From contig JBFLWF010000001.1 in NCBI GenBank assembly GCA_040758355.1, positions 160,001-224,000 of the forward strand: a stretch of 64,000 bases of DNA. The letters are read 5' to 3'. A program made the position numbers and the translations under genes. The notes below the pieces were generated by a model. That model did no database searches. It was not told the DNA's origin and worked only from the letters and a program-made list of their open reading frames with translations. Positions 1 through 60,626 of this stretch are shown piece after piece. The number at the start of each line of letters is the position of its first letter. Within the stretch, counting starts at the first letter, position 1. The DNA comes from Nitrospirota bacterium (GTDB taxonomy: Bacteria > Nitrospirota > Thermodesulfovibrionia > Thermodesulfovibrionales > Dissulfurispiraceae).

Positions 1-2081
1 TCGATTGTCTGTTGGAGTTCTTTTATCTCTCTTTTCCTTTTCAGGATATCCTTCCCGTGTCCTGCAAACAACCACCCGTCGCTGGTTATAATCTCCCCAT
101 CGAGGGTAACGAGATGAACGGGATGGGTGAATGGGCGAATGGGCGAATGGGTGAAAAGGATTCCCATAGCAGTTTGTAAGTCTTTTACTATATAGGTAGT
201 GTCTGTTATGCCAAATACCTTTTCCTTGACTTCGTTATCCTCGAATGTTGCAAAGTCTGATGCCTTGCCAATAATGTTGTCATGAGTAATATTTGCTGTC
301 GTCTGTCCTTTGTCCTCTGTCGTCTGACTTCTGTCGTCTGTCCTCTGTCCTCTGTATAATATGGCTGTCCTTCCAAGATTCTTCTCTTTGACAATATCTA
401 TTACCGAGATGGCGTCTTCGATATTATCTATTATCAGGGCATTGATTTTTTCTGAAAGGGCAGCCTCGATGGCCATTTCATAATCCTTATTTGCATTAAT
501 GATATCGGACAGGACCCTGTATCCACGTCCTTCGGATACGAAGTCCGCGATGGATCTGTCCACGATTAATTCCTTTAATGAATTAAGCCTGGATATATTG
601 GAGGCAAGGTCTTCTCTCTCTTGAGAAAGGAGCGTTTTTTTGCTTTCAATATCATCCTTTAACTGCGCTATCTCTGAGGTTATTGCGTCTTTTTCGGATT
701 TAAGCCTCAGGATATCGTCTGTTTTTATCTTTATGGATTCCTCGGCTTCTCTAATGGCCTTTTCCAGTTCGTCCATACCTGCTTTTATAGTCTCTATATC
801 CTTGAGGGCAACCGATTCCCGGTATTTCATGTTCTCAAGGGAAGACTGGAGCTTGTGGAACTCATTCTTTCTATTGCTGAGATTTTCGGATGCCTTGAAG
901 ATCTCTTTTCTTTGATTTTCAATCTCGGATTCCTTGTCTGTAATCTTAGTCTCGATGTCCGCTATCCAGTCCTTCTTTTCGTTCAACTCCATGGATATGT
1001 TTTCTATGCTGGACAGCAGTGCGTTTTCTGTGTCGTCGAGTTCTGAAATCTTTCCTGAGAGTTCTTCTTTTTTATTCTTTATTTCTTCCTGCTGATTGGT
1101 AAGCCTGATGATATCCTCTTTTTTATTTTCGATGTTTGTTTTTAGCACCGCTATGTGTTTTTCGGAGTCCGATATAGACCGTTCTTTCTCGTGCAGGTTG
1201 TTTTCGAGTTCTGTCAGGGCCTTCTCTCTTTCTGCAAGCTCAAGGCGTTTGGTTTCTATGAGGTTTTCTAAGATGGAGAGTTCGCTCCTCTGAGAGGCAT
1301 CTATTTCCCTCAGTTTTTCGATCTCTGATAATATCTCGCTCAGAACCGTGCCGAGCCTTGTGTACTCTCTCTTTGCCGTTCTTAGTTCCACCTCTTTCAG
1401 CTCGCCTATCAATCTCTTGTATCGCTCGGCCTTTTTTACCTGCCTGTCGAGGCTGTTTATCTGGCGTTTTACTTCATATACAATGTCGTTTATCCTCTGT
1501 AAGTTCTGTTTTGATGATTCGAGCTTTGAAAGGGCCTCTGCCTTTCTGACCTTGTATTTCATTACCCCGGCTACCTCTTCTATAAGGAACCGCCTTTCAT
1601 GGGGCTTGGTATTGATGATCTCTCCTATCCTGCCCTGGTCGAGTATGGAGTAGCTTTTTACATCGAGCCCTGTGTCGAGGAATATATCCTTTATATCTTT
1701 AAGCCTGCACTGTTTCTTGTTTAATAGGTATTCGCTTTCACCGGACCTGTACAGTCTTCTGGCAACATAAATTTCATTAGCGTCTTCATCGGGTGAGCCG
1801 TTACCGTTTTTAGCATCGCTTTTCTGTGAGATAATCAACGTAACCTCGGCCATTCCCTTCTGCTTCTTTGTGGCTGACCCCTGGAATATTACCTCTTCCA
1901 TTTTTTCGCCGCGCAGGCTCTTTGCGCTCTGCTCCCCGAGCACCCACCTGAAGGCATCTACCACGTTGCTCTTCCCGCAGCCATTGGGGCCTACGATGCA
2001 GGTAATGCCGCTGTGGAGGGGGAACGGTGTCTTGTCAGCAAAGGATTTGAACCCGATAAGCTCGATCTGTTTGATTTTCAT
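1..2081 (-). CDS. smc: Chromosome segregation protein SMC, 5' part; runs off the window start
   Basis: Starts MKIKQIELIGFKSFADKT with a GPNGCGKSN P-loop. I translated the hinge region by hand (..KNLGRTAI..HLVTLDGEII..) and it is open. Probably absent from the ORF track because no stop lies in the window. Confidence 0.95.
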   Translation of the reverse strand, partial: MKIKQIELIGFKSFADKTPFPLHSGITCIVGPNGCGKSNVVDAFRWVLGEQSAKSLRGEKMEEVIFQGSATKKQKGMAEVTLIISQKSDAKNGNGSPDEDANEIYVARRLYRSGESEYLLNKKQCRLKDIKDIFLDTGLDVKSYSILDQGRIGEIINTKPHERRFLIEEVAGVMKYKVRKAEALSKLESSKQNLQRINDIVYEVKRQINSLDRQVKKAERYKRLIGELKEVELRTAKREYTRLGTVLSEILSEIEKLREIDASQRSELSILENLIETKRLELAEREKALTELENNLHEKERSISDSEKHIAVLKTNIENKKEDIIRLTNQQEEIKNKKEELSGKISELDDTENALLSSIENISMELNEKKDWIADIETKITDKESEIENQRKEIFKASENLSNRKNEFHKLQSSLENMKYRESVALKDIETIKAGMDELEKAIREAEESIKIKTDDILRLKSEKDAITSEIAQLKDDIESKKTLLSQEREDLASNISRLNSLKELIVDRSIADFVSEGRGYRVLSDIINANKDYEMAIEAALSEKINALIIDNIEDAISVIDIVKEKNLGRTAILYRGQRTDDRSQTTEDKGQTTANITHDNIIGKASDFATFEDNEVKEKVFGITDTTYIVKDLQTAMGILFTHSPIRPFTHPVHLVTLDGEIITSDGWLFAGHGKDILKRKREIKELQQTI
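122..155. repeat. 8-bp tandem array (GAATGGG[C/T]) in frame in the smc hinge
   Basis: gatgggt gaatgggc gaatgggc gaatgggt gaa; encodes FTHSPIRPFTHP. Confidence 0.9.
296..355. repeat. 7-bp tandem array (CTGTCCT-like) in frame in the smc hinge
   Basis: About 8 degenerate units; encodes RGQRTDDRSQTTEDKGQTT. Confidence 0.9.
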
Positions 2082-2159
2082 AATGCCCTTCATTTTACGC
2101 AGTAGACACCAAAACGGTCAAGTTAAAGTTTAAAATAAAGCTAATATAATAATAAATTT

Positions 2160-2196
2160 TTTTTATTTGACGATTCCTGTATTTCTATATTAGCCT
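2160..2196 (+). promoter_or_regulatory. Putative sigma70 promoter of dsrAB, motif shared with the dsrC upstream region
   Basis: TTTTATTTGAC-N12-TCTATATTA; TTGACG at 2167, TAGCCT 18 nt later. Confidence 0.5.
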
Positions 2197-6945: not shown

Positions 6946-8385
6946 ATGAAAAACCATCCAAGGCTGGTCATTGCCGGAGTCAGAGGCGGCAGCGGAAAAA
7001 CAACCCTCTCCCTCGGCATAATTGCTGCGTTAAGATCCCGGAAAGGTCTGAAGGTCATTCCATTTAAAAAAGGCCCTGATTTCATAGATGCAGGATGGAT
7101 GTCTGTTGCTGCAAAGAACCCATGCTATAATCTCGACCCTTTTCTTATATCGAAGGAAAAGGTTCTGGAATCCTTCATATCACATTTTACTGGCGACATA
7201 GCAATTATAGAAGGCAACAGGGGATTATATGATGGCATGGATACAGAAGGCTCATACAGCACTGCAGAACTGTCAAAGCTTCTAAAATCCTCTGTCATAC
7301 TGATTGTTGACTGCACAAAGATGACGAGGACAGCAGCAGCCGTGGTATTGGGCTGCATGAATCTCGACAGGGATGTCAACATAAAGGGTGTTGTTTTAAA
7401 TCAGGTGGCAGGCAGCCGTCATGAATCAGTGGTGCGCTCATCCATAGAAAAGCATTGCTCATTGCCTGTGCTCGGTGCGATACCGAGATTGAATTCAGGA
7501 GAGTTCCCCGAGCGCCATATGGGCTTAACACCATACCAGGAGCATCATGACACAGGGAATGCACTTTCATTCGTGGAAGACATAGCAAATAAATATCTTG
7601 ACCTTGACAGGATTTTGAGCATAGCAATGGAAGCAGAACCGATAAATAACAGGCACGAGGCTATAGGCTATAGGCAAAAGGCAAAAACCGAAATGCAGGA
7701 TGTAAGTTCCTCATTGCCCATGGCCCATAGCCTATCGCCTGCCGTAAGGATTGGAGTAATAAGGGACTCTGCTTTCCAGTTTTATTATCCTGAAAATATC
7801 GAAGAGCTTGAAAAAAACGGTGCAGAGATTATTGAGGTAAACGCCCTTGAGGATGATCGCCTGCCTGATATCGATGCCCTTTACATAGGAGGAGGCTTCC
7901 CTGAGACAAATGCCATAAGGCTTGCAGAAAATGAAGACTTCAGGGACTCTGTTCTCAATTCAGCAGAAAAGGGTCTTCCCATTTATGCAGAGTGCGGAGG
8001 ACTTATGTTTTTGGGAGACTCCATTATAGTTGACGGCAGGAAATATCCTATGGTAGGTATTTTCCCAATAACCTTTGAAATGAAGAAAAAACCACAAGCG
8101 CATGGCTACACAATCGTTGAAGTAGAAAAAGAGAACCCATTTTATCCTGTAGGAACAGTGCTGCACGGACATGAGTTTCATTATTCTGCTGTTGCCAGCA
8201 TATCAGAAAACGACAGTGCATTTACAGCCTTTAGAATGAAGAGGGGGCATGGCATAAAGAATAAAATGGACGGGATATGTTATAAGAATGTCTTTGCAAC
8301 TTATACGCATATACATGCCCTCGGTGCGGAAGAATGGGTGAGAGGACTTATAAATAAGGCAAAGGAGTTCAAGAAGGCAAAATGA
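6946..8385 (+). CDS. dsrN: Siroheme amidase DsrN (CbiA/CobB family)
   Basis: GGSGKTT, FKKGPDFID, EGNRGLYDG, ERHMGL, YAECGGLM. It lies in the dsr cluster and a separate cbiA lies in the cob operon. Confidence 0.88.
   Translation: MKNHPRLVIAGVRGGSGKTTLSLGIIAALRSRKGLKVIPFKKGPDFIDAGWMSVAAKNPCYNLDPFLISKEKVLESFISHFTGDIAIIEGNRGLYDGMDTEGSYSTAELSKLLKSSVILIVDCTKMTRTAAAVVLGCMNLDRDVNIKGVVLNQVAGSRHESVVRSSIEKHCSLPVLGAIPRLNSGEFPERHMGLTPYQEHHDTGNALSFVEDIANKYLDLDRILSIAMEAEPINNRHEAIGYRQKAKTEMQDVSSSLPMAHSLSPAVRIGVIRDSAFQFYYPENIEELEKNGAEIIEVNALEDDRLPDIDALYIGGGFPETNAIRLAENEDFRDSVLNSAEKGLPIYAECGGLMFLGDSIIVDGRKYPMVGIFPITFEMKKKPQAHGYTIVEVEKENPFYPVGTVLHGHEFHYSAVASISENDSAFTAFRMKRGHGIKNKMDGICYKNVFATYTHIHALGAEEWVRGLINKAKEFKKAK
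7651..7740. repeat. Inverted pair of 7-bp arrays, (AGGCTAT)n ... (ATAGCCT)n, in frame in the dsrN domain linker
   Basis: aggcacg aggctat aggctat aggcaaa aggcaaa / ttgccc atggccc atagcct atcgcct. Confidence 0.85.
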
Positions 8386-19625: not shown

Positions 19626-20858
19626 CTATATTTTTAATAGTATATATAAAATTTTGTCTACCTCGTCTATGAGCTTCTTAAATAACCCTCCATGACTCTT
19701 TGAGTTTCCAAAAAGCTCTGTCCGCATTTCCTGTATTTCAGGGTCATCACACTTTTCGTATGTAATATGCCCGTTCTGCATTGCATATCTTTCTAAAATC
19801 AAGAGTCGTTTTGCATTTTCTATAAATGGCATTAACAATTCTTTTATTTTGTTTAAATCTGACTGCTGACTGCTGACTGCTGACTGCTGTTTTTTAATTA
19901 TTTCCGCAATCTCTTTTATCATGGCGTATAATGTGCAGTATTCGAGTCCCCTTACTCCCCTCCGCCACTGCAAAAGCATGGGATTTCTCCAGAACCAGAG
20001 AAAGTTGCGAGTGCCGAGTGATATTAAATCATCGACTGCTGATTCAAGGTCGGCAAGAATAGATGGAGCAATGGAGTAATAGAGTGATGAGTTAAGTTTC
20101 TGGGCTTCTTCTGACTTTTGACCGGAGAGGTATTCCCAGAGATTTTTTAAAACCCTTGCTCCGTTTGTGTCGTCTGGTGTATCAAAGTGTATTAATGATA
20201 AAATTACTTTGCCTTTTCCGAAACTTCCCTCCACCACTGAAGGCGCATCTTTTAATCTCCGGGGATTCAGATTGATTTTATAAATATCTTCCAATTCCGA
20301 CCAGCCGCCGTTGGCTTCCACATCTCCTACATTCAAATCCGAACTGAACGAGTCGGAAAGTGCATCTCCATAAGTGGCGAGTATTTTTATGGGCGTATCA
20401 TCGACTAAAAATTGTGAAGGCCACCATGCGTGAAAGATAGCTGATGGAGTGATGGAGTGATGGAGTGATGAGTTCCATATAGGATGTCCATTTACATTCA
20501 GATGAATACGGCCGCTGAAGCTCGGCACCCTCTGTTTTGTGGGCATCCTGTTTATATTTAAAAGCCCTATACCATCAAGCGTTGCAAGGCCTGCTCCTCC
20601 GCAGAAACCCAAATAATTACCGCCGCTATTCACAAAATTCTTTATTTCGCCGATGCCCTTTTCACCGAGGGTTTTCATCTTATTCGATGCCCATCCACCG
20701 GGCACAAAGAGCATCCTGTAATTTTTTAGTTCTCCTTTCTTTATATCATCTGAACGGATAAGTTCAAAAGAAAGATTACAGGCCTTCAGAGCCTTATATG
20801 ACATCAATCCCCAAAGAAACGATTCGTCCCATAGAAAAGCAATTGTTTTATTTACCAT
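19626..20858 (-). CDS. BPL_N / class-I glutamine-amidotransferase-like protein of unknown function
   Basis: LFVPGGW, NYLGFCGGAGL; translationally coupled within the cob operon. Confidence 0.7.
   Translation of the reverse strand: MVNKTIAFLWDESFLWGLMSYKALKACNLSFELIRSDDIKKGELKNYRMLFVPGGWASNKMKTLGEKGIGEIKNFVNSGGNYLGFCGGAGLATLDGIGLLNINRMPTKQRVPSFSGRIHLNVNGHPIWNSSLHHSITPSAIFHAWWPSQFLVDDTPIKILATYGDALSDSFSSDLNVGDVEANGGWSELEDIYKINLNPRRLKDAPSVVEGSFGKGKVILSLIHFDTPDDTNGARVLKNLWEYLSGQKSEEAQKLNSSLYYSIAPSILADLESAVDDLISLGTRNFLWFWRNPMLLQWRRGVRGLEYCTLYAMIKEIAEIIKKQQSAVSSQQSDLNKIKELLMPFIENAKRLLILERYAMQNGHITYEKCDDPEIQEMRTELFGNSKSHGGLFKKLIDEVDKILYILLKI
19859..19889. repeat. (CTGACTG)n array, in frame
   Basis: Encodes QQSAVSSQQS. 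Confidence 0.9.
20062..20092. repeat. 8-bp (ATGGAGT[G/A])n array, in frame
   Basis: Encodes SSLYYSIAPS. Confidence 0.8.
20442..20473. repeat. 8-bp (TGATGGAG)n array, in frame
   Basis: Encodes SSLHHSITPS. Confidence 0.9.
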
Positions 20859-20882
20859 TACTCCAGCACTCCATTACTCCAC
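20855..20882. repeat. 8-bp array supplying the cbiG-cbiH stop and the next ATG
   Basis: Minus strand tggagtaa tggagtgc tggagTAA TGg. Confidence 0.85.
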
Positions 20883-22696
20883 TTTTTTTCATAACCCCTC
20901 GGTGTAATCATATAGTTATTCAATGTAAATGTCTGAGAGTTTCCTATTATCACTGTTGTCTGCATGTCGATCTCGTAATTGAGCATGTCCCTCAGATTTG
21001 CGATAATAATCCTTTCATTTTCTCTCGTTGCACCCTTTACTATGCCTACAGGTGTTTCGGTGCTCCGGTGTTTGAGGAATATAGCCCTTGCCTTATTGAT
21101 ATGCTCAGGCCTTCCCATGCTTTTGGGATTATAGAGGACTGTTACAAAATCAGACATCGCCGCTGCTGCAAGCCTTTTCTCAATCAATTCCCACGGTGTG
21201 AGTCTATCTGAAAGGCTTATTACTGCGAAATCATGCATGAGCGGCGCGCCGAGCCTTGCTGCGCAGGCATTCAGGGCAGATATACCGGGGATGACTTCTA
21301 CAGCGATGCGTGATGCATTACTTCCTTTTATCTCATTACGCATTACGGATAACGCATTACGGTCTTTAAGTATCTCAAACACCAGCCCTGCCATGGCATA
21401 TATTCCTGGGTCTCCGCCGCTTATGACAGAAACGGTTTTTCCAGACAGTGCAAGCTCAACTGCCTTTTTGCACCTGTCAATTTCCTGCGTCATGCCGGTG
21501 GATACAACCTCTTTGTCTTTGATCAGTTCCTGTATCAAATCGAGATATGTTCCGTATCCAACAATAACATCTGACTTTCTTATGGCATCCTGTGCATAGG
21601 GGGTTATATGTTCAATGCTTCCGGGCCCGGTGCCGACAATGTAAAGCTTTGGAGTGATGGAGTGCTGGAGTATTGGAGCAACTAATTCAGCAACTGCGAT
21701 TGTCACATTTCCGATTTTCTGCTTCGGAACAAGCAACTCCGAAGCGCCTGATGCAAGGAGCGCCGCAGGCTCTGAAACAGCATTTGCGCCTGTTGCCTTA
21801 AAGACTGCCTCTGATTTAGCCATGCCTTCAACTGAGTTTAGTTCTTCAGCCTTAAAGCCGGTAATTGTAAATCCATACCTTTGGGCGAATTTGATCAAGC
21901 CATCTTCTTTACACTTTATGTCAATAGTTGCGAGGGAGTGAATGGACAGAAACGAGAGATTATTATTTTTAAGTACAGCCTTGACTGCTCCTTCTATCTC
22001 TTCTTCTGATGTCCCACTGTTGCATCCGATGCCTACAATAAGATTTTTAGGGCGAAGATAAAGCTGTCCTTTTACGCGGCATGAGCCTGTCGAACATTCT
22101 GCGGATGAGCATTGAGGTTCTTTTAAATAAATATCTTTTTTATTTGTTATGATCGCATCTGCAAATCTGGGCTCGCTTACCTTGAGAAATTCATCAGGCA
22201 GAGATATTTCTATTTCTGAATATACGCGCAATGCGCCATTGTTAAGGTATCGCGTGGCAACATGCGGCATTATCTCCCAGTCTTCGATAGCGAGACTATT
22301 TTCTGATACCCATATATCTATCGCAGTCAGGTTATTTACATCGGATGCGGTTGTTATAATTGCTTCGCCTTTCAAAAAATTCGCAATCTCTTTTGCCAGT
22401 TTGTTTCCTCCGCCTAAATGTCCGCTTAAGAGGCTTATGGCATATTTCCCTTTTTCATCGAGAACAACAACTGCAGGATCTATTTTTTTGTCTTTTATTA
22501 AAGGCGCTATAGTCCTTACCACAATGCCTGTTGCCATGATAAATATGAGATTTTTGCATTCATTCCATATCTCAGGAACAACTTCTGATTTGAATTTTAA
22601 AATTTGAGTATCCTTATAAAGACTTTTAAGCCTTTCAGCGAGCTTCAATCCATTTTCTGTTATATAAAATATTGCGGTTTTATTTTCTATATTCAT
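20858..22696 (-). CDS. cbiG-cbiH: CbiG-CbiH(CobJ) fusion: cobalt-precorrin-5A hydrolase / C17-methyltransferase
   Basis: DPAVVVLDE..SLLSGHLGG, VGIGC; then LYIVGTGPG, SGGDPGIY, ISLSDRLTPW, YNPKS, ITPRGY. Confidence 0.92.
   Translation of the reverse strand: MNIENKTAIFYITENGLKLAERLKSLYKDTQILKFKSEVVPEIWNECKNLIFIMATGIVVRTIAPLIKDKKIDPAVVVLDEKGKYAISLLSGHLGGGNKLAKEIANFLKGEAIITTASDVNNLTAIDIWVSENSLAIEDWEIMPHVATRYLNNGALRVYSEIEISLPDEFLKVSEPRFADAIITNKKDIYLKEPQCSSAECSTGSCRVKGQLYLRPKNLIVGIGCNSGTSEEEIEGAVKAVLKNNNLSFLSIHSLATIDIKCKEDGLIKFAQRYGFTITGFKAEELNSVEGMAKSEAVFKATGANAVSEPAALLASGASELLVPKQKIGNVTIAVAELVAPILQHSITPKLYIVGTGPGSIEHITPYAQDAIRKSDVIVGYGTYLDLIQELIKDKEVVSTGMTQEIDRCKKAVELALSGKTVSVISGGDPGIYAMAGLVFEILKDRNALSVMRNEIKGSNASRIAVEVIPGISALNACAARLGAPLMHDFAVISLSDRLTPWELIEKRLAAAAMSDFVTVLYNPKSMGRPEHINKARAIFLKHRSTETPVGIVKGATRENERIIIANLRDMLNYEIDMQTTVIIGNSQTFTLNNYMITPRGYEKKWSNGVLE
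21303..21362. repeat. Inverted pair (CGTAATG)n / (CATCACG)n in frame in the cbiH domain
   Basis: Encodes RNALSVMRNEIKGSNASRIA. Confidence 0.85.
21650..21680. repeat. 8-bp (TGGAGT..)n array forming the CbiG/CbiH linker
   Basis: Encodes APILQHSITP. Confidence 0.85.
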
Positions 22697-23435
22697 GCTT
22701 AAAATCCTTGTTATAGAGTTTTGATTCCTTGCCTAAAGAACTCTCCGACGCCATTAATGATTTGCCTATATAAATTAATGCGGTCTTTTTAATACCAGCA
22801 TCTTTCACCATCTCGACAATATCTTTCAATATACCTTTCAGAATTCTCTGCTCAGGCCATGAAGCCTTTTCAATGACTACAACTGGAGTATCTTCGGGAT
22901 AGCCCTCCAAAAGCTCATCTTTTACTTTTTCGACCATTCCCACACTCAAAAAAATCACCATTGTTGCTTTATGCTTTGCCAATTCGCTCAACTTCTCGGT
23001 TTCGGGAACAGGCGTCCGTCCTTCCATGCGTGTAAATATAACGGTTTGGCTGATTTCGGGTATGGTGAGTTCCTGTCCAAGTACAGCTGCACCTGCCATT
23101 GCTGAAGATACGCCGGGAATGACTTCGTATTCAATATTTAATCCTCTCAACCGCTCTATCTGCTCTGATATGGCGCTGTAAAAGGATGTGTCGCCTGTGT
23201 GCAGCCTGACAACTGTTTTCTTGGCTGCAATGGACTTTTTAATAACTTCTGTTGTCTCATCGAGTGTCATGCTTGCAGAGTTATATATCTCTGCCTTTAT
23301 GCCCTTTAATAATTCAGGGTTAACAAGGCTTCCTGCATAAATAACGACATCAGCGTTATCGAGCAGTTTCCTGCCTTTAATGGTTATCAGTTCAGGGTCT
23401 CCCGGCCCTGCGCCTATGAAATATACCTTACTCAT
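22680..23435 (-). CDS. cbiF: Precorrin-4 C11-methyltransferase
   Basis: VYFIGAGPGDPELITIKG, YAGSLV, ELTIPEISQTVI, KASWPE, SKLY. Confidence 0.95.
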   Translation of the reverse strand: MSKVYFIGAGPGDPELITIKGRKLLDNADVVIYAGSLVNPELLKGIKAEIYNSASMTLDETTEVIKKSIAAKKTVVRLHTGDTSFYSAISEQIERLRGLNIEYEVIPGVSSAMAGAAVLGQELTIPEISQTVIFTRMEGRTPVPETEKLSELAKHKATMVIFLSVGMVEKVKDELLEGYPEDTPVVVIEKASWPEQRILKGILKDIVEMVKDAGIKKTALIYIGKSLMASESSLGKESKLYNKDFKHEYRK

Positions 23436-24181
23436 TTCTTGATTATCACCACCGAAAAATAGTTGAGGTCGCCTTCCTTGATGTCCCTTATATTTTTGAA
23501 TATCTTTTCATCATCCATGCCTGCCCGTGAGACATAAACTGCATTATTCGTTAGATTCATTTCATTAAGAATAGTTAGAACCCTATCAAAGACCCTGTGA
23601 ACCTTCATGAGAACGATGGTGTCAAACCTCTCCAGAGTCTCTTTTATGTTATCAGTGTAGGTTGCAGGAAGGATGGCGATTTTTTCATCAGCAAGGCTTA
23701 AGGACAGGTTTGCCCTTGCTGCTGCGGTATTTATGGATGACACGCCCGGAATTATTTCTATACTGAGTTCAGGATTGAGTTCGAGGAGCTTGTCGTATAA
23801 ATAGAAAAATGTGCTGTAAATGGTGGGGTCTCCGATAGTTATGAAAGCCATATCAGTGCCTTTATTCAACCTGCTGTAAACCGTCTCGATTGTTTCCTGC
23901 CATTTGGTATCAAGCATGCATAAATCATTTTTTTCTTTCTGACCGCTGACTGCTGACTGCTGACTGCTTTTCGTTTTTCTCATGGGAAAATGTGCTTCGA
24001 TAATCTCTTTGCCGTCGAGATTCAATGCCTTTTCCACAATGGATAATGCCATGCTGCTGCCTTCTTCCCTTCCCTTTGGAACGCAGATGCATTGAACCTC
24101 TTTAAAGATTCTCACTGCCTTCAATGTCAACAGTTCAGGGTCTCCGGGACCGACTCCTATGACATAAAGTTTTCCTGTCAT
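23432..24181 (-). CDS. cbiL: Precorrin-2 C20-methyltransferase
   Basis: GVGPGDPELLTLKA, FPM, TIGDPTIYSTF, VLMK, YFS. Confidence 0.93.
   Translation of the reverse strand: MTGKLYVIGVGPGDPELLTLKAVRIFKEVQCICVPKGREEGSSMALSIVEKALNLDGKEIIEAHFPMRKTKSSQQSAVSGQKEKNDLCMLDTKWQETIETVYSRLNKGTDMAFITIGDPTIYSTFFYLYDKLLELNPELSIEIIPGVSSINTAAARANLSLSLADEKIAILPATYTDNIKETLERFDTIVLMKVHRVFDRVLTILNEMNLTNNAVYVSRAGMDDEKIFKNIRDIKEGDLNYFSVVIIKK
23939..23968. repeat. (CTGACTG)n array in frame in cbiL
   Basis: Encodes SSQQSAVSGQ. Confidence 0.9.
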
Positions 24182-26221: not shown

Positions 26222-26248
26222 TTTATCCCCTTTTTGTCAGTCTATTTG

Positions 26249-28366: not shown

Positions 28367-28370
28367 GCCT

Positions 28371-36099: not shown

Positions 36100-36890
36100 A
36101 CTGTTATCACCATTAAAAACAATATTTCCGAGATCTCGCTCAGCGCGCCTAAATTATCACCAGTGAGGCCGTTGAATTTTTTATTGCAGAACTTCACTGT
36201 CATGAAGCTGAACATATACAAAAGTGCAAATAGCATAATAAACAGTGTTACACTGCCTGTCCCGTAAACCTTTAAGAGGTGCAGTTCCGCTATCAGTATG
36301 TACAGCACAATGACCAGCAGTGATGAAAATACGACAGTATTTATTTTTACATTATTCAGGAATATTCTGCCGAGGCCATCCTGCCGTGCTGATGTGCCGT
36401 GATGCATGGCTATAACCATTATCCACTTTGAAAACACAGGCATGAGAAACAGCATGGAATAAACTGTAAATATGGATGAATTTGTAAAGAGGCTGCTTAT
36501 GAAGAGGAACTTGAGCAGGATTACAGAAACTATGGCGACAACTCCTATGGCCCCTGTTGTGCTGTCTTTCATCACAGCAAGCCTTTTCTCAATGTCCGTT
36601 TCTCTATCTCCTGTTGATTTCACAGACAGTGCATCAAAAGTGTCTGCAAGTCCGTCAAGGTGAAAGCCCCCGTTGCTTATTATTAGCATTGAAATAATCA
36701 GCCCTGCTGCAATTTCTGGAGAAAATATCTTTAAAAACAGCATGGCAGATAAAACCCCCAGCAGTCCCTGAAATGCACCTGCTAAAGGGAAAAAGGCTGC
36801 TGATTGCGCTATCTCTTTTTCGGAGACACCACCATTCACCCTTACAGGTACTATCGTAAGAAACTGGAATGCAAGGAGTAATTGCTTCAT
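36078..36890 (-). CDS. cobS: Cobalamin synthase
   Basis: AFQFLT, GGFHLDGLADTFD, MKDSTTGAIG, GLTGDNLGA. Confidence 0.95.
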   Translation of the reverse strand: MKQLLLAFQFLTIVPVRVNGGVSEKEIAQSAAFFPLAGAFQGLLGVLSAMLFLKIFSPEIAAGLIISMLIISNGGFHLDGLADTFDALSVKSTGDRETDIEKRLAVMKDSTTGAIGVVAIVSVILLKFLFISSLFTNSSIFTVYSMLFLMPVFSKWIMVIAMHHGTSARQDGLGRIFLNNVKINTVVFSSLLVIVLYILIAELHLLKVYGTGSVTLFIMLFALLYMFSFMTVKFCNKKFNGLTGDNLGALSEISEILFLMVITVWLRHFI

Positions 36891-37952
36891 TTAATTCTGT
36901 ATCTCGCTTGAAACCCCGGCCTCGCCAAAGGTTGCCATTTCTTTATATATCTTTAATCCTGCCTCTATCATAAGCATTGCCAATGCTGCGCCTGTGCCTT
37001 CACCGAGCCTCAAATCAAGGTCAAGGACAGACCTTAACCCCATTTTATCGAGCATTGCCTTGTGCCCAATTTCAACGGAGTTATGGGCTGCAAACATATA
37101 ATCTTTTACCCCTGGCTCGATGCAATATGCGATTAATGCGCCTGCTGTGGAGATGAACCCGTCAATGACAACCGGAATCCTGTTTGATGCTGCACCGAGG
37201 ACCAATCCCGCGATGCCTCCAATCTCTGCACCGCCCACTTTTGCGAGGACGTCTATTGCGTCTTCAGGATTTGGCTTATTCAATTTTATGCCGTTCTCTA
37301 TTACCGTAATCTTCCTTTTTAATGATTCGTCAGTTATTCCCGTACCTTTGCCTGTAACCTCAGAAACGGGTTTGCCAGTAAGCACAGATGCAATAGCGCT
37401 CGATGGCGTTGTATTCCCTATCCCCATCTCTCCTGTGCCGAATATCTTATAGCCCTTTTTGGCATATCCGTTTGCAAGCTCGATCCCTACATCTATGCAT
37501 CTTATTGTCTCATCCCTTGTCATTGCAGGGCCTTTTGTGAAGTTTTTGGTTCCTTTTATCACCTTCATGTTTACCAGTCCTTCAATCTCTCCAAAATCGT
37601 GGTCAACGCCTATATCCACAACAACAACCTCTGCTCCTGCATGTCTTGCAAGGACATTGATGCCTGCACCTCCTCTCAGGAAATTAAATACCATCTGAGG
37701 GGTGACCTCTTTTGGATAGGCTGATACGCCATCTTCTGTAATGCCGTGGTCTCCTGCGAAAGTGAAGATTACCTTTTTATCCAGAACCGGGCTTTTGTTC
37801 TCGGTAATGGCGACAAATCTCCGTGCAAACTCCTCAAGCCTTCCGAGGCTTCCGAGGGGCTTTGTGAGGTTGTCGAGGTGCTTTTGAGCCAGGCCATACC
37901 ATTCTTCATTCACTGACCTGATATTTTTTAGTGTTGCATTGAGTAAATCCAT
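36891..37952 (-). CDS. cobT: Nicotinate-nucleotide-dimethylbenzimidazole phosphoribosyltransferase
   Basis: [37 protein letters not shown]. Confidence 0.97.
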
Positions 37953-37962
37953 CTGTCTTCTC

Positions 37963-38508
37963 CTACTTTATTTTTAAAGGTATTCCTGCGGTCACAAGAT
38001 ATACTTCGTCTGCTAAGGCTGCCATCTTTTGATTTAAATAGCCGGATAAATCTCTGAATCTCCTTGATAATGCATTGTCAGGAACGATTCCAAGACCGAC
38101 CTCGTTCGAAACAGTGAATAGTGAACAGTGAATAGTGGATAAGGAAGAAATAAAAGACTCTGTTTCTGCTTCAACATCCTTATTATTAAGCATCAGATTC
38201 GAAAGCCATAGTGTCAGGCAGTCAACAAGGATTACATCATAGCTTTTATGAATGTCAGATATCAGCGTCGAGATATTCAGCGGCTCTTCGAAGGTTGTCC
38301 ACTCACCTGGCCGTTCTTTTTTGTGTTTCTTAATCCGTTCCTTCATCTCATCATCCAGAGCCTGTGCAGTAGCAATATATGCCTTGCGCATGGAGGAGAT
38401 TGCATCTCCTCCATGAACCCCCTCTTTAGAAGGGATATAATTATTGGCAAGCTGCAGGGCAAACCTGCTTTTTCCGCTTCTCGCACCGCCTATGATGAAT
38501 GTTATCAA
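37963..38508 (-). CDS. cobU: Adenosylcobinamide kinase/guanylyltransferase (TTG start)
   Basis: [34 protein letters not shown]. Confidence 0.95.
38110..38141. repeat. (AATAGTG/AACAGTG)n array in cobU
   Basis: Encodes [11 protein letters not shown]. Confidence 0.9.
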
Positions 38509-38519
38509 CTCAGCACCCC

Positions 38520-38560
38520 TAAAAATAAAAAATCCTCATGGCAAAATGCCATGAGGATTG
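38520..38560 (-). terminator. Leader terminator, likely the riboswitch expression platform
   Basis: Minus strand aatcctcatggca-tttt-gccatgaggatt plus a U-rich tail just before the cobU SD. Confidence 0.8.
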
Positions 38561-38629
38561 CACCCTGTTTCACTTCATCCTCTCCTTCATCCACGTGAAG
38601 GCTTTAAATCCTATTCCCTAATTTCTGTC

Positions 38630-46457: not shown

Positions 46458-48440
46458 ATGTTTATAGAGAAAATAAAATCCCCGCAGGACTTAAAATCCC
46501 TCAAGACAGAAGACCTGAATGCCCTTGCCGAGGAACTGCGAAATGTAATCATTGAAAGGGTTTCCATTAATGGCGGGCATCTTGCATCTAATTTAGGAGT
46601 TGTGGAACTGACCATAGCACTCCATTATGTCTTTAATTCCCCTGAAGACAAGATTGTCTGGGATGTGGGACATCAGTCATACTCCCATAAGCTTTTAACA
46701 GGAAGATTTCATATTTTCCATACGCTCAGGAAATATAAGGGATTATCAGGGTTTCCGAAGATTTCAGAAAGTCCCCATGATGCCTTTGGCACTGGACACA
46801 GTTCCACTTCCATATCCGCTGCTATTGGAATACTGGAGGCGAGGGACATTATTAAAAAATTTCAAATTTCAAATCTCAGATTTCAAATTCCCAATAAGGT
46901 TATAGCAGTTATAGGCGATGGCGCTTTAACATCAGGACTGGCGTTTGAAGGACTTAATCATGCAGGGCATCTCAAAAAAGACCTTATCGTAATTCTCAAT
47001 GACAACGAGATGTCCATATCTCCGAATGTTGGAGCCTTGTCCAACTATCTTAATAAGGTCTTGACAGGTACATTCTACAAAAAATTCAAGAAAGAGACAA
47101 AGGCATTTTTGGAAGGCATTCCCAAGATCGGAGAAACAGTCGCAAAGATTGCCCAGAAGGCAGAAGGCAGCATGAAGGGATTTTTCCTGCCAGGAGGATT
47201 GTTTGAGGATCTTGGATTTAATTATTTAGGCCCAATCGACGGCCATGATATACCATTACTGATCGAAACATTAAACAGCATTAAAGATGCGAATGAGCCG
47301 ACATTAATTCATGTAGTAACCAAGAAAGGCAAAGGATACAAGTTTTCAGAGGAAGACCCGTGCATATATCATGGAGTGGGGCCATTTGAGGCAGATACGG
47401 GAATACAGAAAGAAGGGTCAGGGGTCAAAGGTCAAGGGTCAAAGGCCGAAGAAAACTTGGAAAACTTGCCTGTTGTCCATTGCATCTCGCCGCTTGCATA
47501 CAGCGATGTATTCGGTAATGCACTTATGGAAATTGCAGAGGCTGATAAAAGGGTTGTAGCTATAACTGCTGCAATGAAAGAGGGGACAGGCCTTGCAACA
47601 TTTGCTGAGAGATTTCCAGAAAGATTTTATGATGTGGGCATTGCAGAGCCCCATACAGTAACCTTTGCAGCAGGCCTTGCAGCACAGGGATTAAAGCCGG
47701 TTGTGGCAATATACTCCACATTCATCCAGAGGGCTTATGATGAAATTATCCATGATGTCTGCCTCCAGAACCTCCCTGTTGTATTTGCCATAGACAGGGC
47801 AGGTATAGTTGGCGAGGACGGCGCAACGCATCAGGGTCTGTTCGACATATCATTTCTGAGGCATATCCCAAATCTCTTGTTTATGGCCCCAAAAGACGGG
47901 CAGGAATTGAAAGACATGCTTAAGTTCGCAGTTCAGTATAATGGCCCTTCAGTCATAAGGTATCCGAGGGGAAAGGTGAGTCAGGAGTCAAGAGTTAAGA
48001 GTCAAGAGTCAGAAATAATAAGGGGGAAATTCGAAATTTTGATGGAAGGTGATGATGTAGCAATCATTGCTGTGGGTAATGCAGTGCATCCATCATTGAA
48101 GGCGGCAGAGATGTTGAAGGGAGATGGCATAAATGCCTGCGTTGTAAATGCACGGTTCATCAAGCCCCTTGATGAGGAACTCATAATATCAATGTCAGAG
48201 AGGACAAAGAGAATAATTACTGTAGAAGAGAATGTCCTTGCAGGAGGCTTTGGCTCAGCGGTTCTTGAATGCGTAAACAAGGCAGGATTGACGGATATTG
48301 CAGTCAAAAGAATCGGCATAGATGACGAATTCGTAGAGCACGGCTCTCAGGGAATCCTGAGAAAAGAATACGGTCTTGACGAAGATGGAATATATAAAAC
48401 TGCACTGGCATTTCTGAGCCAACATTGTGCAAGGCTATAA
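46458..48440 (+). CDS. dxs: 1-deoxy-D-xylulose-5-phosphate synthase
   Basis: GGHLASNLG, WDVGHQ, GHSSTSIS, GDGA..LNDN, DRAG..GEDG.THQG. Confidence 0.98.
   Translation: MFIEKIKSPQDLKSLKTEDLNALAEELRNVIIERVSINGGHLASNLGVVELTIALHYVFNSPEDKIVWDVGHQSYSHKLLTGRFHIFHTLRKYKGLSGFPKISESPHDAFGTGHSSTSISAAIGILEARDIIKKFQISNLRFQIPNKVIAVIGDGALTSGLAFEGLNHAGHLKKDLIVILNDNEMSISPNVGALSNYLNKVLTGTFYKKFKKETKAFLEGIPKIGETVAKIAQKAEGSMKGFFLPGGLFEDLGFNYLGPIDGHDIPLLIETLNSIKDANEPTLIHVVTKKGKGYKFSEEDPCIYHGVGPFEADTGIQKEGSGVKGQGSKAEENLENLPVVHCISPLAYSDVFGNALMEIAEADKRVVAITAAMKEGTGLATFAERFPERFYDVGIAEPHTVTFAAGLAAQGLKPVVAIYSTFIQRAYDEIIHDVCLQNLPVVFAIDRAGIVGEDGATHQGLFDISFLRHIPNLLFMAPKDGQELKDMLKFAVQYNGPSVIRYPRGKVSQESRVKSQESEIIRGKFEILMEGDDVAIIAVGNAVHPSLKAAEMLKGDGINACVVNARFIKPLDEELIISMSERTKRIITVEENVLAGGFGSAVLECVNKAGLTDIAVKRIGIDDEFVEHGSQGILRKEYGLDEDGIYKTALAFLSQHCARL
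46857..46890. repeat. (AAATTTC)n array in dxs
   Basis: Encodes KFQISNLRFQI. Confidence 0.9.
47414..47447. repeat. (AGGGTCA)n array in the dxs linker
   Basis: Encodes GSGVKGQGSKA. Confidence 0.88.
47978..48013. repeat. (GAGTCAA)n array in the dxs linker
   Basis: Encodes SQESRVKSQES. Confidence 0.9.
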
Positions 48441-56899: not shown

Positions 56900-57688
56900 A
56901 TGAGAATATTTGTCCTTCCTGAAGATATAGCAAAAAAAGAAGGCATTAAACTTAATGCCGACAAATCTCATTATCTCATTTCTGTTCTGAGATGTAAAAA
57001 AGGCGATGTTATTACAATCATTGACGGCAAAGGCAAGGCATATGAGGCCGAGGTTGCTGAGATTGCAAAAGGAAATGTCTTGATTACTGTTATTAATGAA
57101 ATTCAATTAGACACGGAATCCTCTTTAAATCTCATTCTCTGTCAGGGGATACTGAAAGGCGAGAAGATGGATCTGGTTATTCAAAAGACTACCGAACTTG
57201 GAGTAAAAGAGATAATCCCACTTATTACAGAGAGGTGTGTTGTTAAGGAGACGAGAAAGGTGAAGAGGTGGCAGAAGATTGCAGAGGAGGCTGCAGAGCA
57301 GTGCGGAAGGACAGTTATCCCGACTGTTCATGAACCGATTGAATACCGTAATGCGTTATGCGTGATGAGTGATGAGTATAAAAAATTTCTTTTAACCCAT
57401 CACGATTTACCCATTACGGATTACGGGTTAAACGGATTTATTTTCTGGGAAGAGGGCGGTTTGGCTTTAAAAGAGGCAATTAAAAAGCTTTTGCCTTCTC
57501 CATCACTCCATAACTCCAACACTCCAATCTTTGTGTTTGTCGGCCCTGAGGGCGGTTTTACAGCCGAAGAAGTAAAGCTGTCAGAGGAGCATGGGCTTAT
57601 CAGAACGACACTCGGCAAACGGACTCTCCGTGCAGAGACAGCGGCAATTGTATCGGTGGCATTAGTGCAGTTTTTGCTTGAATCCTGA
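56900..57688 (+). CDS. rsmE: 16S rRNA m3U1498 methyltransferase
   Basis: HYLISVLR, QKTTELGV, EAAEQCGR, GPEGGF, LRAETA. Confidence 0.96.
   Translation: MRIFVLPEDIAKKEGIKLNADKSHYLISVLRCKKGDVITIIDGKGKAYEAEVAEIAKGNVLITVINEIQLDTESSLNLILCQGILKGEKMDLVIQKTTELGVKEIIPLITERCVVKETRKVKRWQKIAEEAAEQCGRTVIPTVHEPIEYRNALCVMSDEYKKFLLTHHDLPITDYGLNGFIFWEEGGLALKEAIKKLLPSPSLHNSNTPIFVFVGPEGGFTAEEVKLSEEHGLIRTTLGKRTLRAETAAIVSVALVQFLLES
57346..57426. repeat. Inverted pair (CGTAATG)n / (CATTACG)n in frame in rsmE
   Basis: ccgtaat..attacgg termini; encodes RNALCVMSDEYKKFLLTHHDLPITDYG. Confidence 0.88.
57498..57528. repeat. 8-bp (ACTCCATC)n array in rsmE
   Basis: Encodes SPSLHNSNTPI. Confidence 0.85.
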
Positions 57689-58612: not shown

Positions 58613-58643
58613 TTCGCAAGGGGGACAAAGTCCCACTTGCGAA
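58613..58643. repeat. GGGAC/GTCCC-core hairpin just before the lapAB start
   Basis: ttcgcaag-g-gggac-aaa-gtccc-a-cttgcgaa. Confidence 0.6.
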
Positions 58644-58651
58644 GTGAACTG

Positions 58652-59965
58652 ATGGGCAAGATAGCAATACTGATATTTTTGGTCTTTCTTGCAATACTCG
58701 GATTTTTCGCGGTCGAAAATAAAGATATTGTGAGCATAAAGGTTCCTTTCGGAAGCATTTATGAGATCCCGAAGATTGCCCTCATTCTCCTCTCTACAAC
58801 CGTGGGCGCCCTTGCTGTACTCATTATTTTCTTTATACGCGATACAAAGAGGGTCATAGACAATCTCCAGTATCAGAAGAGGCAGAAAAGAGAGGCGAGG
58901 ATACAGGAGTTCTATTCAAGGGCACTGAATGCCATACTCGGCGACAAAGAGGAAGAGGCAAAGGATGCCTTGAAGGATATACTCAAGGAAGACCCTGAAC
59001 ATATAGATGCCCTTCTGAGACTGGGCGACATATCTCTTAACAATAAGGATTACAAGACAGCACTTGACTATTACAGAAAGGCAAAAGACATCGATCCAAA
59101 AAATCTGCAGGCTCTTCTTTCCATAGAGACAGTGACGGAGAGGATGCAGAGGCATGACGATGCCCTTAAATACCTCGATGAGATACTCGATATAGATTCT
59201 GAAAACCTTACTGCCCTTTACAGGAAGCGTGCAATCCTCGAAAAGAAGGATATGTGGGATGACCTCCTATCCCTGCAGAGGACAATAATCAAGCTCGAGC
59301 ACAGCGAAAGCGACAAGCAGCAGGAAGAACACAGACTGCTCGGCTATAAATATGAATATGCACGCTCAAGCCTCGAAAGTGGCGAATTGGAGAAGGCAGA
59401 AAAGGCATTCAGGACAATGATAAAGATGAATGACGGTTTTATCCCTGCTTATCTCGGCCTTGCAGAGGTCATCCTGACCAGAGGAGAAACAGAGGAGGCC
59501 ATAAACTTCCTGGAAAAGGCATACGAGCAGTTGAAATCCATAATAATACTTGCACGCCTCGAAGACCTGCTCATCAATGTTGGAGAGCCGGGAAGACTGA
59601 TACGGTTTTACAGGAATGCCATAGCGAAAAGCCCGCAGGACAACGGGCTGAGATTTCTCCTTGGAAAACTTTACTACAGGCTTGAGATGGTGGAGGATGC
59701 GATGGATTTATTGAATTCCATAGATACCAATGTTTTTTCCGTGCCAGAGCTTTTCAGCCTGCGGGGTGAATTGTATATAAAGAGAAACCAGATTCCAAAG
59801 GCGCTTGACGAGCTTAAAAAGGCATGCGGGATACGGCGTCCCTTCAGGATACAGTACTGCTGCTCCAATTGCGGTTTCAGGTCGGAGGACTGGTCAGGGA
59901 GATGTCCTCAGTGCATGGAATGGAATACTTACCGTCTTGATGTATATGGCACCTGCAAAGCGTAA
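58652..59965 (+). CDS. LapA-like membrane domain, TPR repeats and rubredoxin-like domain (LapA-LapB/YciM-like fusion)
   Basis: FAVEN..V.. plus two TM segments; TPR repeats; CSNCG..CPQC..W. Confidence 0.8.
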   Translation: MGKIAILIFLVFLAILGFFAVENKDIVSIKVPFGSIYEIPKIALILLSTTVGALAVLIIFFIRDTKRVIDNLQYQKRQKREARIQEFYSRALNAILGDKEEEAKDALKDILKEDPEHIDALLRLGDISLNNKDYKTALDYYRKAKDIDPKNLQALLSIETVTERMQRHDDALKYLDEILDIDSENLTALYRKRAILEKKDMWDDLLSLQRTIIKLEHSESDKQQEEHRLLGYKYEYARSSLESGELEKAEKAFRTMIKMNDGFIPAYLGLAEVILTRGETEEAINFLEKAYEQLKSIIILARLEDLLINVGEPGRLIRFYRNAIAKSPQDNGLRFLLGKLYYRLEMVEDAMDLLNSIDTNVFSVPELFSLRGELYIKRNQIPKALDELKKACGIRRPFRIQYCCSNCGFRSEDWSGRCPQCMEWNTYRLDVYGTCKA

Positions 59966-60626
59966 AAAGAGTGATGAGTCATCATCACCAATTACCCATC
60001 ACCCATCACAGCCGTTAAATGTTGTTCTGGATACGAGCCTCTTTGTGAATCCTGATGTGAGGACGAGTCTTGGTAGTAATCCCACAGAGGCTTTGGAGAC
60101 ATTCCTTTTCCTCGCAGCACAGATACACGTGCTTGAATTTTACATGCCCCCTTCCATTTTCGAGGAGCTTCTGCACTTTGTAGAGAGGGACAAAATACCT
60201 GCAGACCTCCTCCTGATTTTGCACCAGAAGCCTCCGAAGAAACATGAATTGAAAACCCCTGCATTCCTATTGTACGAGCTAATCGAGGATATAAGGGAAA
60301 GGGTTAATAAGGGGTTGAGGGTTGCAGAGAAGGCTGTAAGGAGTGCGGAGAGCAAAAAGGCTGACGAGATTATTCAGGACATGAGGAGGAAATACAGAGA
60401 GGCGCTGCGTGAAGGCATAATCGACAGCAAGGAGGATGTGGACCTGCTTTTGCTCGCAATGGAGCTTGATGCCCTGCTCATTACAGCAGACCATGGTCTG
60501 ATAAAATGGGCTGAAAAGTTGGGCATACGATGGCTCTTTCCCGAGAAGTTCAAGGAATACCTGATGAGCGCCATAAAGAGGACAGAGTTAATCAAAAAAT
60601 CCTTTGCCCATGAGCCTGTGCCTTAG
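59946..60626 (+). CDS. Protein-only RNase P of HARP/Aq_880 type (PIN domain, 'RNA ligase partner' family)
   Basis: VLDTSLFVNPDVR, FYMPPSIF.EL, RERVNKGLRVAE, KYREALREGIIDSKEDVDLLLLA.EL, AD.GL..WAEKLG. Confidence 0.9.
   Translation: MAPAKRKKSDESSSPITHHPSQPLNVVLDTSLFVNPDVRTSLGSNPTEALETFLFLAAQIHVLEFYMPPSIFEELLHFVERDKIPADLLLILHQKPPKKHELKTPAFLLYELIEDIRERVNKGLRVAEKAVRSAESKKADEIIQDMRRKYREALREGIIDSKEDVDLLLLAMELDALLITADHGLIKWAEKLGIRWLFPEKFKEYLMSAIKRTELIKKSFAHEPVP
59969..60011. repeat. (GAGTGAT)/(CCCATCA)n arrays forming the HARP N-terminal extension
   Basis: Encodes SDESSSPITHHPSQ. Confidence 0.8.

Follow-up and report, generated by a model that had tools for sequence, protein, structure and literature searches.

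The 64,000-nt stretch analysed here (the window) carries short tandem arrays lying in frame inside conserved genes, although their usual unit lengths, 7 and 8 nt, are not multiples of three. How do such arrays enter genes, and what keeps the reading frame?

Arrays in the window and in the genome

About 30 arrays are present in the window and about 500 genome-wide, nearly all of period 7 or 8 and 28–36 nt long. Our detector called 32 arrays of period 7, 8 or 9 in the window, in line with the more than 30 announced in a preliminary description of this DNA, and TRF listed the named arrays at their positions. One of these calls, in dxs (47154–47170), was rejected as it reflects only a conserved QKAEG peptide; another, at 61849, is a weak intergenic array. 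In the whole genome, 210 arrays have period 7, 65 period 8 and 5 period 9, while the remaining periods between 4 and 13 have 0–10 arrays each. Compared with synonymous-shuffle and codon-shuffle controls over 2.44 Mb of predicted CDS (score of at least 11), a clear excess was seen for period 7 (214 real arrays versus 6 and 1, respectively) and period 8 (38 versus 4 and 2). Period 9 gave 12, 11 and 3, so that 9-mers barely exceed chance.

Median array length is 30–33 nt for coding and intergenic arrays alike, and purity is high (median 96% identity to the array's own unit). In the commonest family, CAGCAGT (45 arrays), 38 of 40 arrays fall within 24–39 nt. Intergenic arrays make up 207 of 502 (∼40%), a share in which frame-breaking arrays in pseudogenes would be included, given our home-made simple gene caller. 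The coding sites comprise more than 200 protein loops and leader peptides of this sulfur bacterium; array-bearing ORFs are open and the majority match family models along their length. Genes whose codon bias points to high expression have a 7–8 times lower array density (2.1 versus 14.6–17.1 per 100 kb), and dsrAB, dsrMKJOP, guaAB, dnaKJ and glnS are devoid of arrays, as had been noticed. Read support, on which the preliminary description had made the arrays depend, was obtained for four parts of the window: in run X1, possibly the sample from which this genome came, Logan contigs span 19870–23461, 29432–30650, 31139–33221 and 33193–38600 with identical letters.

The recurrence of families in different genes was also borne out, with the GAAATTT type at 28661, 29428 and 46857 and the GAATGGGT type at 123 and 29625. 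The motifs had been called ‘unrelated’; in fact they share a T-N-A grammar and a G-rich/C-rich polarity.

Arms, hairpins and four-helix-bundle cassettes

All six TIGR02436 (four-helix-bundle) genes of the genome, and its one GxxExxY gene, have inverted 7/8-mer arms on both sides. These seven cassettes lie among protein genes and outside the window, which, as previously stated, holds no such gene. In relatives, 23 of 26 cassettes have at least one arm, and both were detected for 16. In-gene arrays share the motifs, polarity and hairpin layout of cassette arms, and 12.7% of 221 have a unit identical to a cassette-arm unit, compared to 2.3 ± 1.0% with shuffled units. The cobC/cobQ junction (35461–35468, minus strand), empty in this genome, holds an empty hairpin in relative G006, a full four-helix-bundle cassette in G003 and a REP-like hairpin in G019. 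The suspected link to such cassettes is thus upheld: the arrays match solo arms or empty hairpins of four-helix-bundle (IVS/Avd-like) or GxxExxY cassettes.

Among 55 hairpins, the left arm is richer in G than in C in 45 and the right arm richer in C than in G in 44. A partner arm was found on the inner side of 86/158 intergenic and 23/173 coding arrays, and on the outer side of 10/158 and 4/173, respectively; no excess of decayed partner arms was seen alongside coding solo arrays (P = 0.9). Hairpin loops differ from one another and more than 130 distinct arm units occur. Array density is raised within 20 kb of cassettes (31 versus 17 per 100 kb) but not within 5 kb (P = 0.15). In the co-occurrence check suggested earlier, 20 of 27 relatives with TIGR02436 match one arm pattern and 12 of 14 without it do not, these kin not being independent. 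Two results weigh against the derivation of arrays from arm DNA that we favour below: seven relatives with a four-helix-bundle gene lack a match to the tested pattern, and no cassette among the genome's seven matches the CAGCAGT family.

The best PDB match of the four-helix-bundle protein is 2GSC, and both its PDB relatives are five-chain. The same protein family and a heptamer-armed stem are found in the Coxiella 23S rRNA IVS where, in the parts of the source available, an S23p ORF lies in the stem and the 5′ arm consists of tandem GACAGAT heptamers of varying copy number (PMC4990558). Here, in contrast, cassettes and arrays sit among or in protein genes rather than at rRNA genes, and gene-less arms or hairpins occupy more than 200 coding sites. 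Neither did we observe a clear G-U bias over A-C on the transcribed strand (80 versus 67; 28 versus 16 hairpins), and a hairpin acting at the RNA level was rejected on this ground.

Rickettsia palindromic elements (RPE), REP/REPIN, cyanobacterial SDR and Borg tandem repeats likewise look like selfish DNA that is translated in frame into surface or disordered peptides. Copies of RPE or REP share one conserved sequence including the loop, whereas here many motifs of unit 7 or 8 replace each other, loops differ and shared flanks are at chance level. One conserved sequence with conserved ends, as in MITEs, RPE or REP, elements that often show a target duplication, was found solely for a separate element class, the REP-like GGGACTGTCCC hairpin, which has 18 match places in the genome and lies in frame in cbiA (31115–31170, minus strand; fold z −6.6).

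Motif replacement at shared sites

Relatives often carry another motif at the same site. In the cbi/cob region (all sites on the minus strand), the CAGCAGT array of a BPL_N-domain gene (19859–19889) is CAGAAGT, decayed or a hairpin in relatives, a decayed right-arm 8-mer array (20063–20084) corresponds to five other motifs or hairpins, and a CATCACTC 8-mer array (20442–20470) to TTCACCCA, TTCAGCC or hairpins. In cbiG/H, relatives have other hairpins or solo arms at a degenerate hairpin-type pair, GCGTAAT … CATCACG (21305–21370), which folded no better than shuffles; the linker between the cbiG and cbiH domains holds a right-arm 8-mer array (21650–21678). In G002, the closest relative, CAGCAGT of cbiL (23939–23968) is a right-arm 8-mer, TTCACCCA of cbiX/C (29625–29660) is AAATCTC, and the 9-mer array of cobC (35936–35966) is one unit shorter. 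The cbiQ array CTCACTT (28054–28089) is common within the genus and missing from G004, G009 and G018; TTCAGCC in cbiA (30621–30652) corresponds to other arms and hairpins in relatives, and a right-arm 8-mer in cbiB (33659–33687) has its nearest allele in G019. TTCAGCC also occupies cobQ at aa 391–401 (34269–34302), where five relatives share a hairpin, and in the linker at aa 242–255 (34707–34744), where relatives have at least four other motifs. Further arrays are TATTGCC (right arm) in cbiE/T (24880–24910), TTCACTG in cbiB (33193–33221), CATCACG in cobQ at aa 420–431 (34179–34211) and TTCACTA/TTCACTG in cobU (38110–38141).

Two arrays constitute the signal-peptide-like leader of a small gene in the cbiN position (MRFQISNFKFQ...; 28611–28692), and two others that of cbiM (MKFQISNFKFQ...LFTIHYSLFTVSDAHA; 29386–29461). 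The former is 94% identical to G011, from another genus (72% in the rest), and the latter 89% identical to G018 (69% in the rest). Such leaders are carried by 19 of 46 genes with N-terminal arrays, compared to 336 of 2466 other genes, and arms provide their charged and hydrophobic parts. Some alleles cross genera as 60–170-nt patches; the pooled horizontal-patch signal is weak (synonymous identity 0.57 versus 0.52 within 8 codons, the pairs being non-independent).

On the minus strand, smc contains an 8-mer array of the TTCACCCA type with right-arm polarity (123–155) and a CAGAGGA/CAGACGA-type 7-mer array with left-arm polarity (296–355). The remaining sites are on the plus strand. The cobB-like gene dsrN carries an in-frame empty hairpin (7658–7740; fold z −3.4) with an AGGCTAT/AGGCAAA left arm, a 25-nt spacer and a CATTGCC/CATAGCC right arm; G002 retains the right arm alone and is 54 nt shorter, and G001 has a different hairpin. 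In rsmE, an in-frame hairpin GCGTGAT … CCATCAC/CATTACG (57347–57424; fold z −4.5) precedes a CTCCATCA array (57498–57527) which is TTCACCCA in G001, and an ACCCATC array close to the N-terminus of the PIN_5 gene (59983–60009) corresponds to a decayed hairpin in G002. The three dxs arrays were placed on the protein by alignment: AAATTTC at aa 134–145 (46857–46889) adds 10 aa relative to array-poor kin and is CAGAAGT in G001; GGGTCAA lies in a variable linker at aa 320–329 (47413–47445); GAGTCAA at aa 507–519 (47978–48011) stands in place of the native loop with no net gain in length, and relatives have four other motifs and one hairpin there. Arrays had been described as inserts; this holds for some, while in alignments with relatives many are replacements of similar length.

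We compared the genome systematically with G002 (flanks 91% identical) over 842 kb of the ∼2.6 Mb of G002, with usable flanks at 112 of 429 sites. Coding sites differed in 47 of 87 cases, and 31 of 44 changed 7/8-mer coding sites carry another family in G002, showing that different motifs can occupy the same site in relatives. The family had changed at 42% of shared coding array sites, for a four-fold-site divergence of 0.29. Of 22 solo-solo swaps, 19 preserved polarity, compared to a mean of 11 under permutation (P = 0.0006). Replacements span 20–80 nt with no target duplication visible by eye, shared junction bases are in excess only for 2–3 nt, and divergence is elevated over 20–30 nt beside swapped sites only, in part perhaps through misalignment. 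Donor flanks were co-copied between loci no more than by chance (just one local intergenic and one segmental duplicate), which lends no support to donor-to-target copying inside the genome and counts against the overwriting favoured below. Such same-site swaps to other families, mostly of the same arm polarity, between sister species are new; our literature search turned up no report of motif swapping in proteins on the scale of a genome.

Among length changes, 47 of 50 in coding DNA but only 4 of 18 between genes are divisible by 3. The frame is therefore kept by selection and not by the writer, contrary to the earlier idea that writing itself is in frame. Coding tandem repeats of Borgs reportedly arise locally, with units divisible by 3.

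Could these be ordinary long microsatellites that arise by local slippage, drift in sequence as mutation and re-amplification proceed, and persist in frame where loops tolerate them? Their high purity, the lack of co-copied flanks and the changes in unit number (9-nt and 21-nt steps relative to G002, a 16-nt loss in run X3) would fit. However, the length distribution is peaked (28–36 nt) instead of geometric, enrichment is restricted to periods 7 and 8, a small set of families keeps reappearing, at dozens of sites as well as on the arms of cassettes, and 7-mer/8-mer and solo/hairpin exchanges occur. Other-family swaps predominate over unit changes, and swapped motifs are no nearer than random (3.27 versus 3.46, P = 0.15), which rules out a stepwise motif walk and already weakens this explanation. 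We regard it as improbable, and the earlier argument that local slippage alone is insufficient stands.

Heptamer repeats are reportedly known in bacteria from STRR and from Mrazek 2007. In the available parts of PMC4679880 and PMC4692102, heptamer SSRs of Beggiatoaceae, Cyanobacteria and Xanthomonas show, as here, a 7-nt excess, 2–6 copies and inverted pairs, with stop codons limiting orientation; they are described as mostly intergenic single motifs with peripheral in-ORF cases, unlike the same-site protein swaps and cassette link seen here. The P6b hairpin of the Nostoc tRNA-Leu intron, likewise built of heptamers, switches repeatedly between classes TDNGATT and NNTGAGT out of step with phylogeny (PMC4476775, in the parts available). 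That is one non-coding site with two classes, whereas we observe dozens of coding sites and over 100 units, together with solo arms and a cassette link.

Another explanation is an untargeted rain of cassettes that insert anywhere and lose their cargo and often one arm, re-use of sites reflecting loop tolerance and alleles spreading by homologous recombination between lineages. The clean loss of one arm in dsrN, the cross-genus patches and the rarity of arrays in genes with high-expression codons agree with it. So do the dxs sites, which coincide with multi-residue indel loops of array-poor kin, and the CobQ linker, where other phyla carry arrays of different motifs; site re-use is thus partly plain tolerance, which also counts against the overwriting favoured below. 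Nevertheless, swaps are clean and length-neutral with little remnant, 60 of 74 in-gene arrays of G002 (81%) fall on array sites of our genome while many tolerant sites are empty (112 indel regions have no detected array), and no full cassette lies inside any examined dxs or cob orthologue. Polarity is kept though array-peptide and flank hydropathy are unlinked (rho −0.02), and hydropathy matching was rejected as its cause. We consider such a rain unlikely, if worth keeping in view.

A proposed mechanism: short-patch overwriting by arm DNA

The preliminary description had called for an active writing or homing mechanism. The call remains justified insofar as slippage does not suffice, but no writing enzyme was found, and a retro-homing writer such as a DGR or group II intron is not supported. 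RVT_1 had no match in this genome (99% complete) nor in five other array-rich relatives (G002, G016, G017, G019 and G036) and showed no tie to array load; a reverse transcriptase was therefore rejected. Loss of mismatch repair or DprA was rejected too, as 39 and 40 of the 41 genomes retain them.

An enzyme might instead extend DNA breaks at their 3′ ends by some five G-rich units, as in telomere healing, one healed end giving a solo arm and two a hairpin. The G-rich arm does come first in hairpins, array length is defined, loops vary, polarity is retained per site and both target duplication and co-copied flanks are absent. Against this, more than 130 units would need many templates, six array-rich genomes lack a reverse transcriptase, arms consistently enclose a four-helix-bundle or GxxExxY gene as cargo, and hairpins of other classes, whose loops are conserved, enter the same sites in the same manner. 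De novo end-writing is, in our opinion, improbable.

We lean, by a modest degree, towards arm DNA overwriting host sequence as ∼30–35-nt pieces through short-patch, microhomology-type recombination, probably favouring resident arms. As donor we propose single strands of arm or hairpin DNA, which the genome itself or related cells would supply. Resident arms would be favoured landing sites because arms of the same polarity share the T-N-A register. Selection would then retain in-frame outcomes where weakly expressed genes have tolerant loops, linkers or leaders, and slippage would later trim and homogenise arrays; a pentameric four-helix-bundle protein might, speculatively, set arm length by binding about five units. 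A mechanistic analogy is SPDIR of Acinetobacter baylyi, in which heterologous single strands of intra- or extra-genomic origin replace 3–∼100 bp at microhomologies with no target duplication, very rarely in wild type and suppressed by DprA and RecA (bioRxiv 10.1101/2023.11.22.568220, in the parts available). That rarity and suppression would argue against an SPDIR-type mechanism here, since this genome has dprA and mutS. In addition, SPDIR is sequence-unspecific, whereas here replacement occurs often and mainly involves a single class of element.

Arrays are a large source of protein change, being involved in 59 of 121 indels of at least 3 residues between two sister species. We know of no accepted mechanism for the bacterial 7-nt repeat excess or for Nostoc P6b class switching; this lineage ties the excess and P6b-type switching to the arms of four-helix-bundle cassettes, and the cassette link together with dozens of orthologous before/after sites makes the question testable. 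As a more tentative possibility, the arms may be landing pads of a selfish system free of transposase and reverse transcriptase, whose pentameric four-helix-bundle protein binds about five T-N-A units of 7/8 nt and directs arm-for-arm replacement within the genome and across genera. If so, loops and signal peptides would be rewritten as ten-residue blocks faster than by neutral base change.

Arrays as arms of gene cassettes

Repeat detection recovered the microsatellite arrays claimed for the window, whose genes comprise part of smc, dsrAB, dsrN, dsrC, dsrMKJOP, a cob/cbi operon, guaBA, dxs, hrcA-grpE-dnaKJ, rsmE and glnS. Over the whole Nitrospirota genome (G000; 2.77 Mb, 99% complete), of which the window is C1:160001-224000, an excess was observed only at periods 7 and 8, with 210 and 65 arrays, respectively, against 0–10 for each other period. 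In coding DNA, 214 arrays of period 7 were found, and two shuffles gave 6 and 1; for period 8 the count was 38 versus 4 and 2. The preliminary description had proposed a 7/8/9-bp system; an excess over shuffled controls holds for periods 7 and 8, but period 9 in coding DNA is close to chance level. Slightly looser cut-offs gave a total of 502 arrays (245 inside predicted genes, 50 at gene ends and 207 intergenic). The cob operon stretch (window 20–40 kb) ranks second in array density among 99 bins of 20 kb, and most cob arrays are unchanged in contigs of the sequencing run X1, possibly the source sample. These contigs are ~3% divergent over window 23461–28689 and identical to the window elsewhere, which suggests a recombined tract between strains. 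For CobQ, four of the six best-scoring named records are from Nitrospirota (63–69% identity).

Inverted 7/8/9-mer arrays flank every one of the six TIGR02436 four-helix-bundle genes, as well as the sole GxxExxY gene of the genome. Among relatives, at least one arm was present at 23 of 26 genes of these types. Exact unit matches to these arms were observed in 12.7% of 221 in-gene arrays compared to 2.3% for shuffled units (5x). The genome also carries 55 hairpins without a gene, the G-rich arm coming first in 45 (left arm G-rich, right arm C-rich, hereafter polarity); in-frame hairpins occur in the window within dsrN (z −3.4) and rsmE (z −4.5, folding against shuffles). The cobC/cobQ junction is empty here and in relatives G001 and G011, and holds an empty hairpin in G006 and a REP-like hairpin in G019. 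In G003 it carries a complete cassette, the right arm of which encodes the N-terminus of CobQ. A common motif grammar was also observed, T-N-A being present in 78% of 444 arrays versus 55±2% in shuffles. Within arrays, variation is highest at the base between T and A, which is also where stems are most often mismatched (81/142). Given the cassette flanks, unit matches, hairpins, cobC/cobQ series and common grammar, the arrays are arms, single or paired, and the suggested tie to four-helix-bundle cassettes is thereby borne out.

Several individual cassettes deserve mention. At G000:C20:34614-34712, a four-helix-bundle gene has lost most of its middle with both arms intact, a state midway from cassette to empty hairpin. 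Another cassette is bracketed by a 21-bp direct repeat (G000:C24:141-161 and 628-648) absent from the rest of the genome; a similar sequence lies after a cassette of the closest relative, G002 (DNA piece L107). In six pieces from relatives (L096, L098, L099, L100, L112 and L120), a ribosome-binding site and ATG precede the right arm of the cassette; this arm would encode the N-terminal end of the next gene product.

Same-site change and tolerance

The comparison with G002 covered 842 kb (about one third of the G002 genome), with usable flanks of 91% identity at 112 of 429 sites. Among 87 coding sites, 31 were the same, 9 length-variable and 47 different, including three 9-mer unit changes. The remaining 44, all 7/8-mer sites, hold another family in 31 cases and the same family in 2; no array was detected in 11, of which roughly half look by eye like decayed arms. 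Motifs exchanged at a site were at no smaller distance than random ones (p=0.15, or 0.69 within polarity), but polarity was retained in 19 of 22 exchanges of one solo arm for another (p=0.0006). That the arrays are plain microsatellites, changing by slippage, is improbable.

Length differences from G002 were divisible by 3 at 47 of 50 coding sites versus only 4 of 18 intergenic ones; the three coding exceptions lie at or near gene ends. The reading frame is therefore kept by selection, and the earlier supposition that the writing itself is in frame is not supported. Array length peaks at 28–36 nt, in coding and intergenic DNA alike. Across at most 30 relatives, a given loop in dxs or a cob protein can hold as many as six or more motifs, or hairpins, or short palindromes of unrelated kinds; often the net length change is zero. 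In 487 orthologue pairs with G002, differing by 0.29 at four-fold sites, arrays are involved in 59 of 121 indels of at least 3 residues, and 60 of 74 G002 arrays (81%) lie at array sites of the genome under study.

The three dxs array sites coincide with loops in which 13 array-poor relatives have multi-residue indels; against E. coli DXS, two are gaps and the third falls in a poorly aligned stretch. CobQ orthologues from many phyla carry arrays in 8 of 79 parsed, inside the gene in 7, all at aa 240–255 or 384–400 and with motifs other than those seen here. The top codon-bias quintile has 2.1 arrays per 100 kb and the middle quintiles have 14.6–17.1, which fits the reported lack of arrays in dsrAB and dnaK. 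Taken together, indel loops and codon bias indicate that tolerance accounts for much of the site re-use. Untargeted insertion plus selection is nevertheless an unlikely full account; clean swaps, retained polarity and the 81% overlap suggest, without proving it, an added preference for occupied sites.

Other elements were also observed. A REP-like GGGACTGTCCC hairpin lies in frame within cbiA (window 31115-31170), with 18 match places in the genome, many adjoining heptamer arrays; short inverted sequences resembling it also end the two Y1/RAYT-type genes. The same tolerant loops take in-frame hairpins CCCCCTT..AAGGGGG, GGGGTCCCC/AAAA..TTTT, GTCATTCCCG and CTGCC..GGCAG (contigs C4, C8, C45 and C54, and cob genes of relatives). 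A 410-aa gene of the cob operon with a weak BPL_N match (window 19626-20858) has three array sites. At window 59946-61718, PIN_5 (RNA ligase partner) and TIGR01209 RNA ligase genes are convergent; their family models are mostly archaeal.

Horizontal patches, leaders and possible mechanism

Over the array-built leader at 28599-28697, identity with G011, from another genus, is 94%, compared to 72% in the remainder of this gene, the tract of raised identity spanning ~170 nt. Similarly, the cbiM leader shares 89% identity with that of G018 (69% for the remainder), and the CobQ linker of G001 is 93–97% identical to those of G006 or G019 (surroundings 77–82%). The pooled flank signal for such patches was weak (synonymous identity 0.57 versus 0.52). 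Among the 46 genes that have an array within their first 40 codons, a simple, purely predictive heuristic scored a signal peptide in 19, versus 336 of 2466 others (p=5e-6). Left arms encode starts rich in K/R, and hydrophobic stretches (LFTIHYSLFT, for example) come from right arms; arm-built leaders are thus predicted as candidate signal peptides. Genes 28371-28697 and 28694-29464 have signal-peptide-like leaders made almost entirely of repeat arms, and ~25 comparable leaders were found across the genome by heuristic and by eye.

By analogy with SPDIR, the short-patch replacement known from Acinetobacter baylyi, we lean towards arm or hairpin DNA overwriting host sites by a short-patch, microhomology-type event; selection and slippage would then act on the overwritten sites. 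We infer a donor, an enzyme and a role of the four-helix-bundle protein in this overwriting. PDB relatives of that protein have five chains, near the 4–5 units per arm, and Xcc0516 is a five-bundle by the title cited in PMC10053308. Arrays at different loci in the genome have no flanks in common beyond chance. As an alternative, de novo end-writing of arms is improbable. The suggested co-occurring reverse transcriptase was not found, a profile search giving no RVT_1 match in this genome or in five other array-rich relatives; mutS and dprA are both present. The pattern TCARNRG x3 had no match in 12 of 14 relatives without TIGR02436 and matched in 20 of 27 with it; the other seven carry the gene without this pattern, which represents one motif class only.

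The closest known systems are the heptamer-bearing intervening sequence of Coxiella (IVS; PMC4990558), the switching repeat classes of Nostoc P6b (PMC4476775) and the heptamer SSRs of Beggiatoaceae, Cyanobacteria and Xanthomonas (PMC4679880, PMC4692102). The open-access texts searched contained no genome-wide same-site motif swapping in proteins and no account of a cassette link of such repeats. The phenomenon is real and its general kind known, although without explanation; swaps, polarity, grammar, patches and leaders are the points tested in the present analysis.
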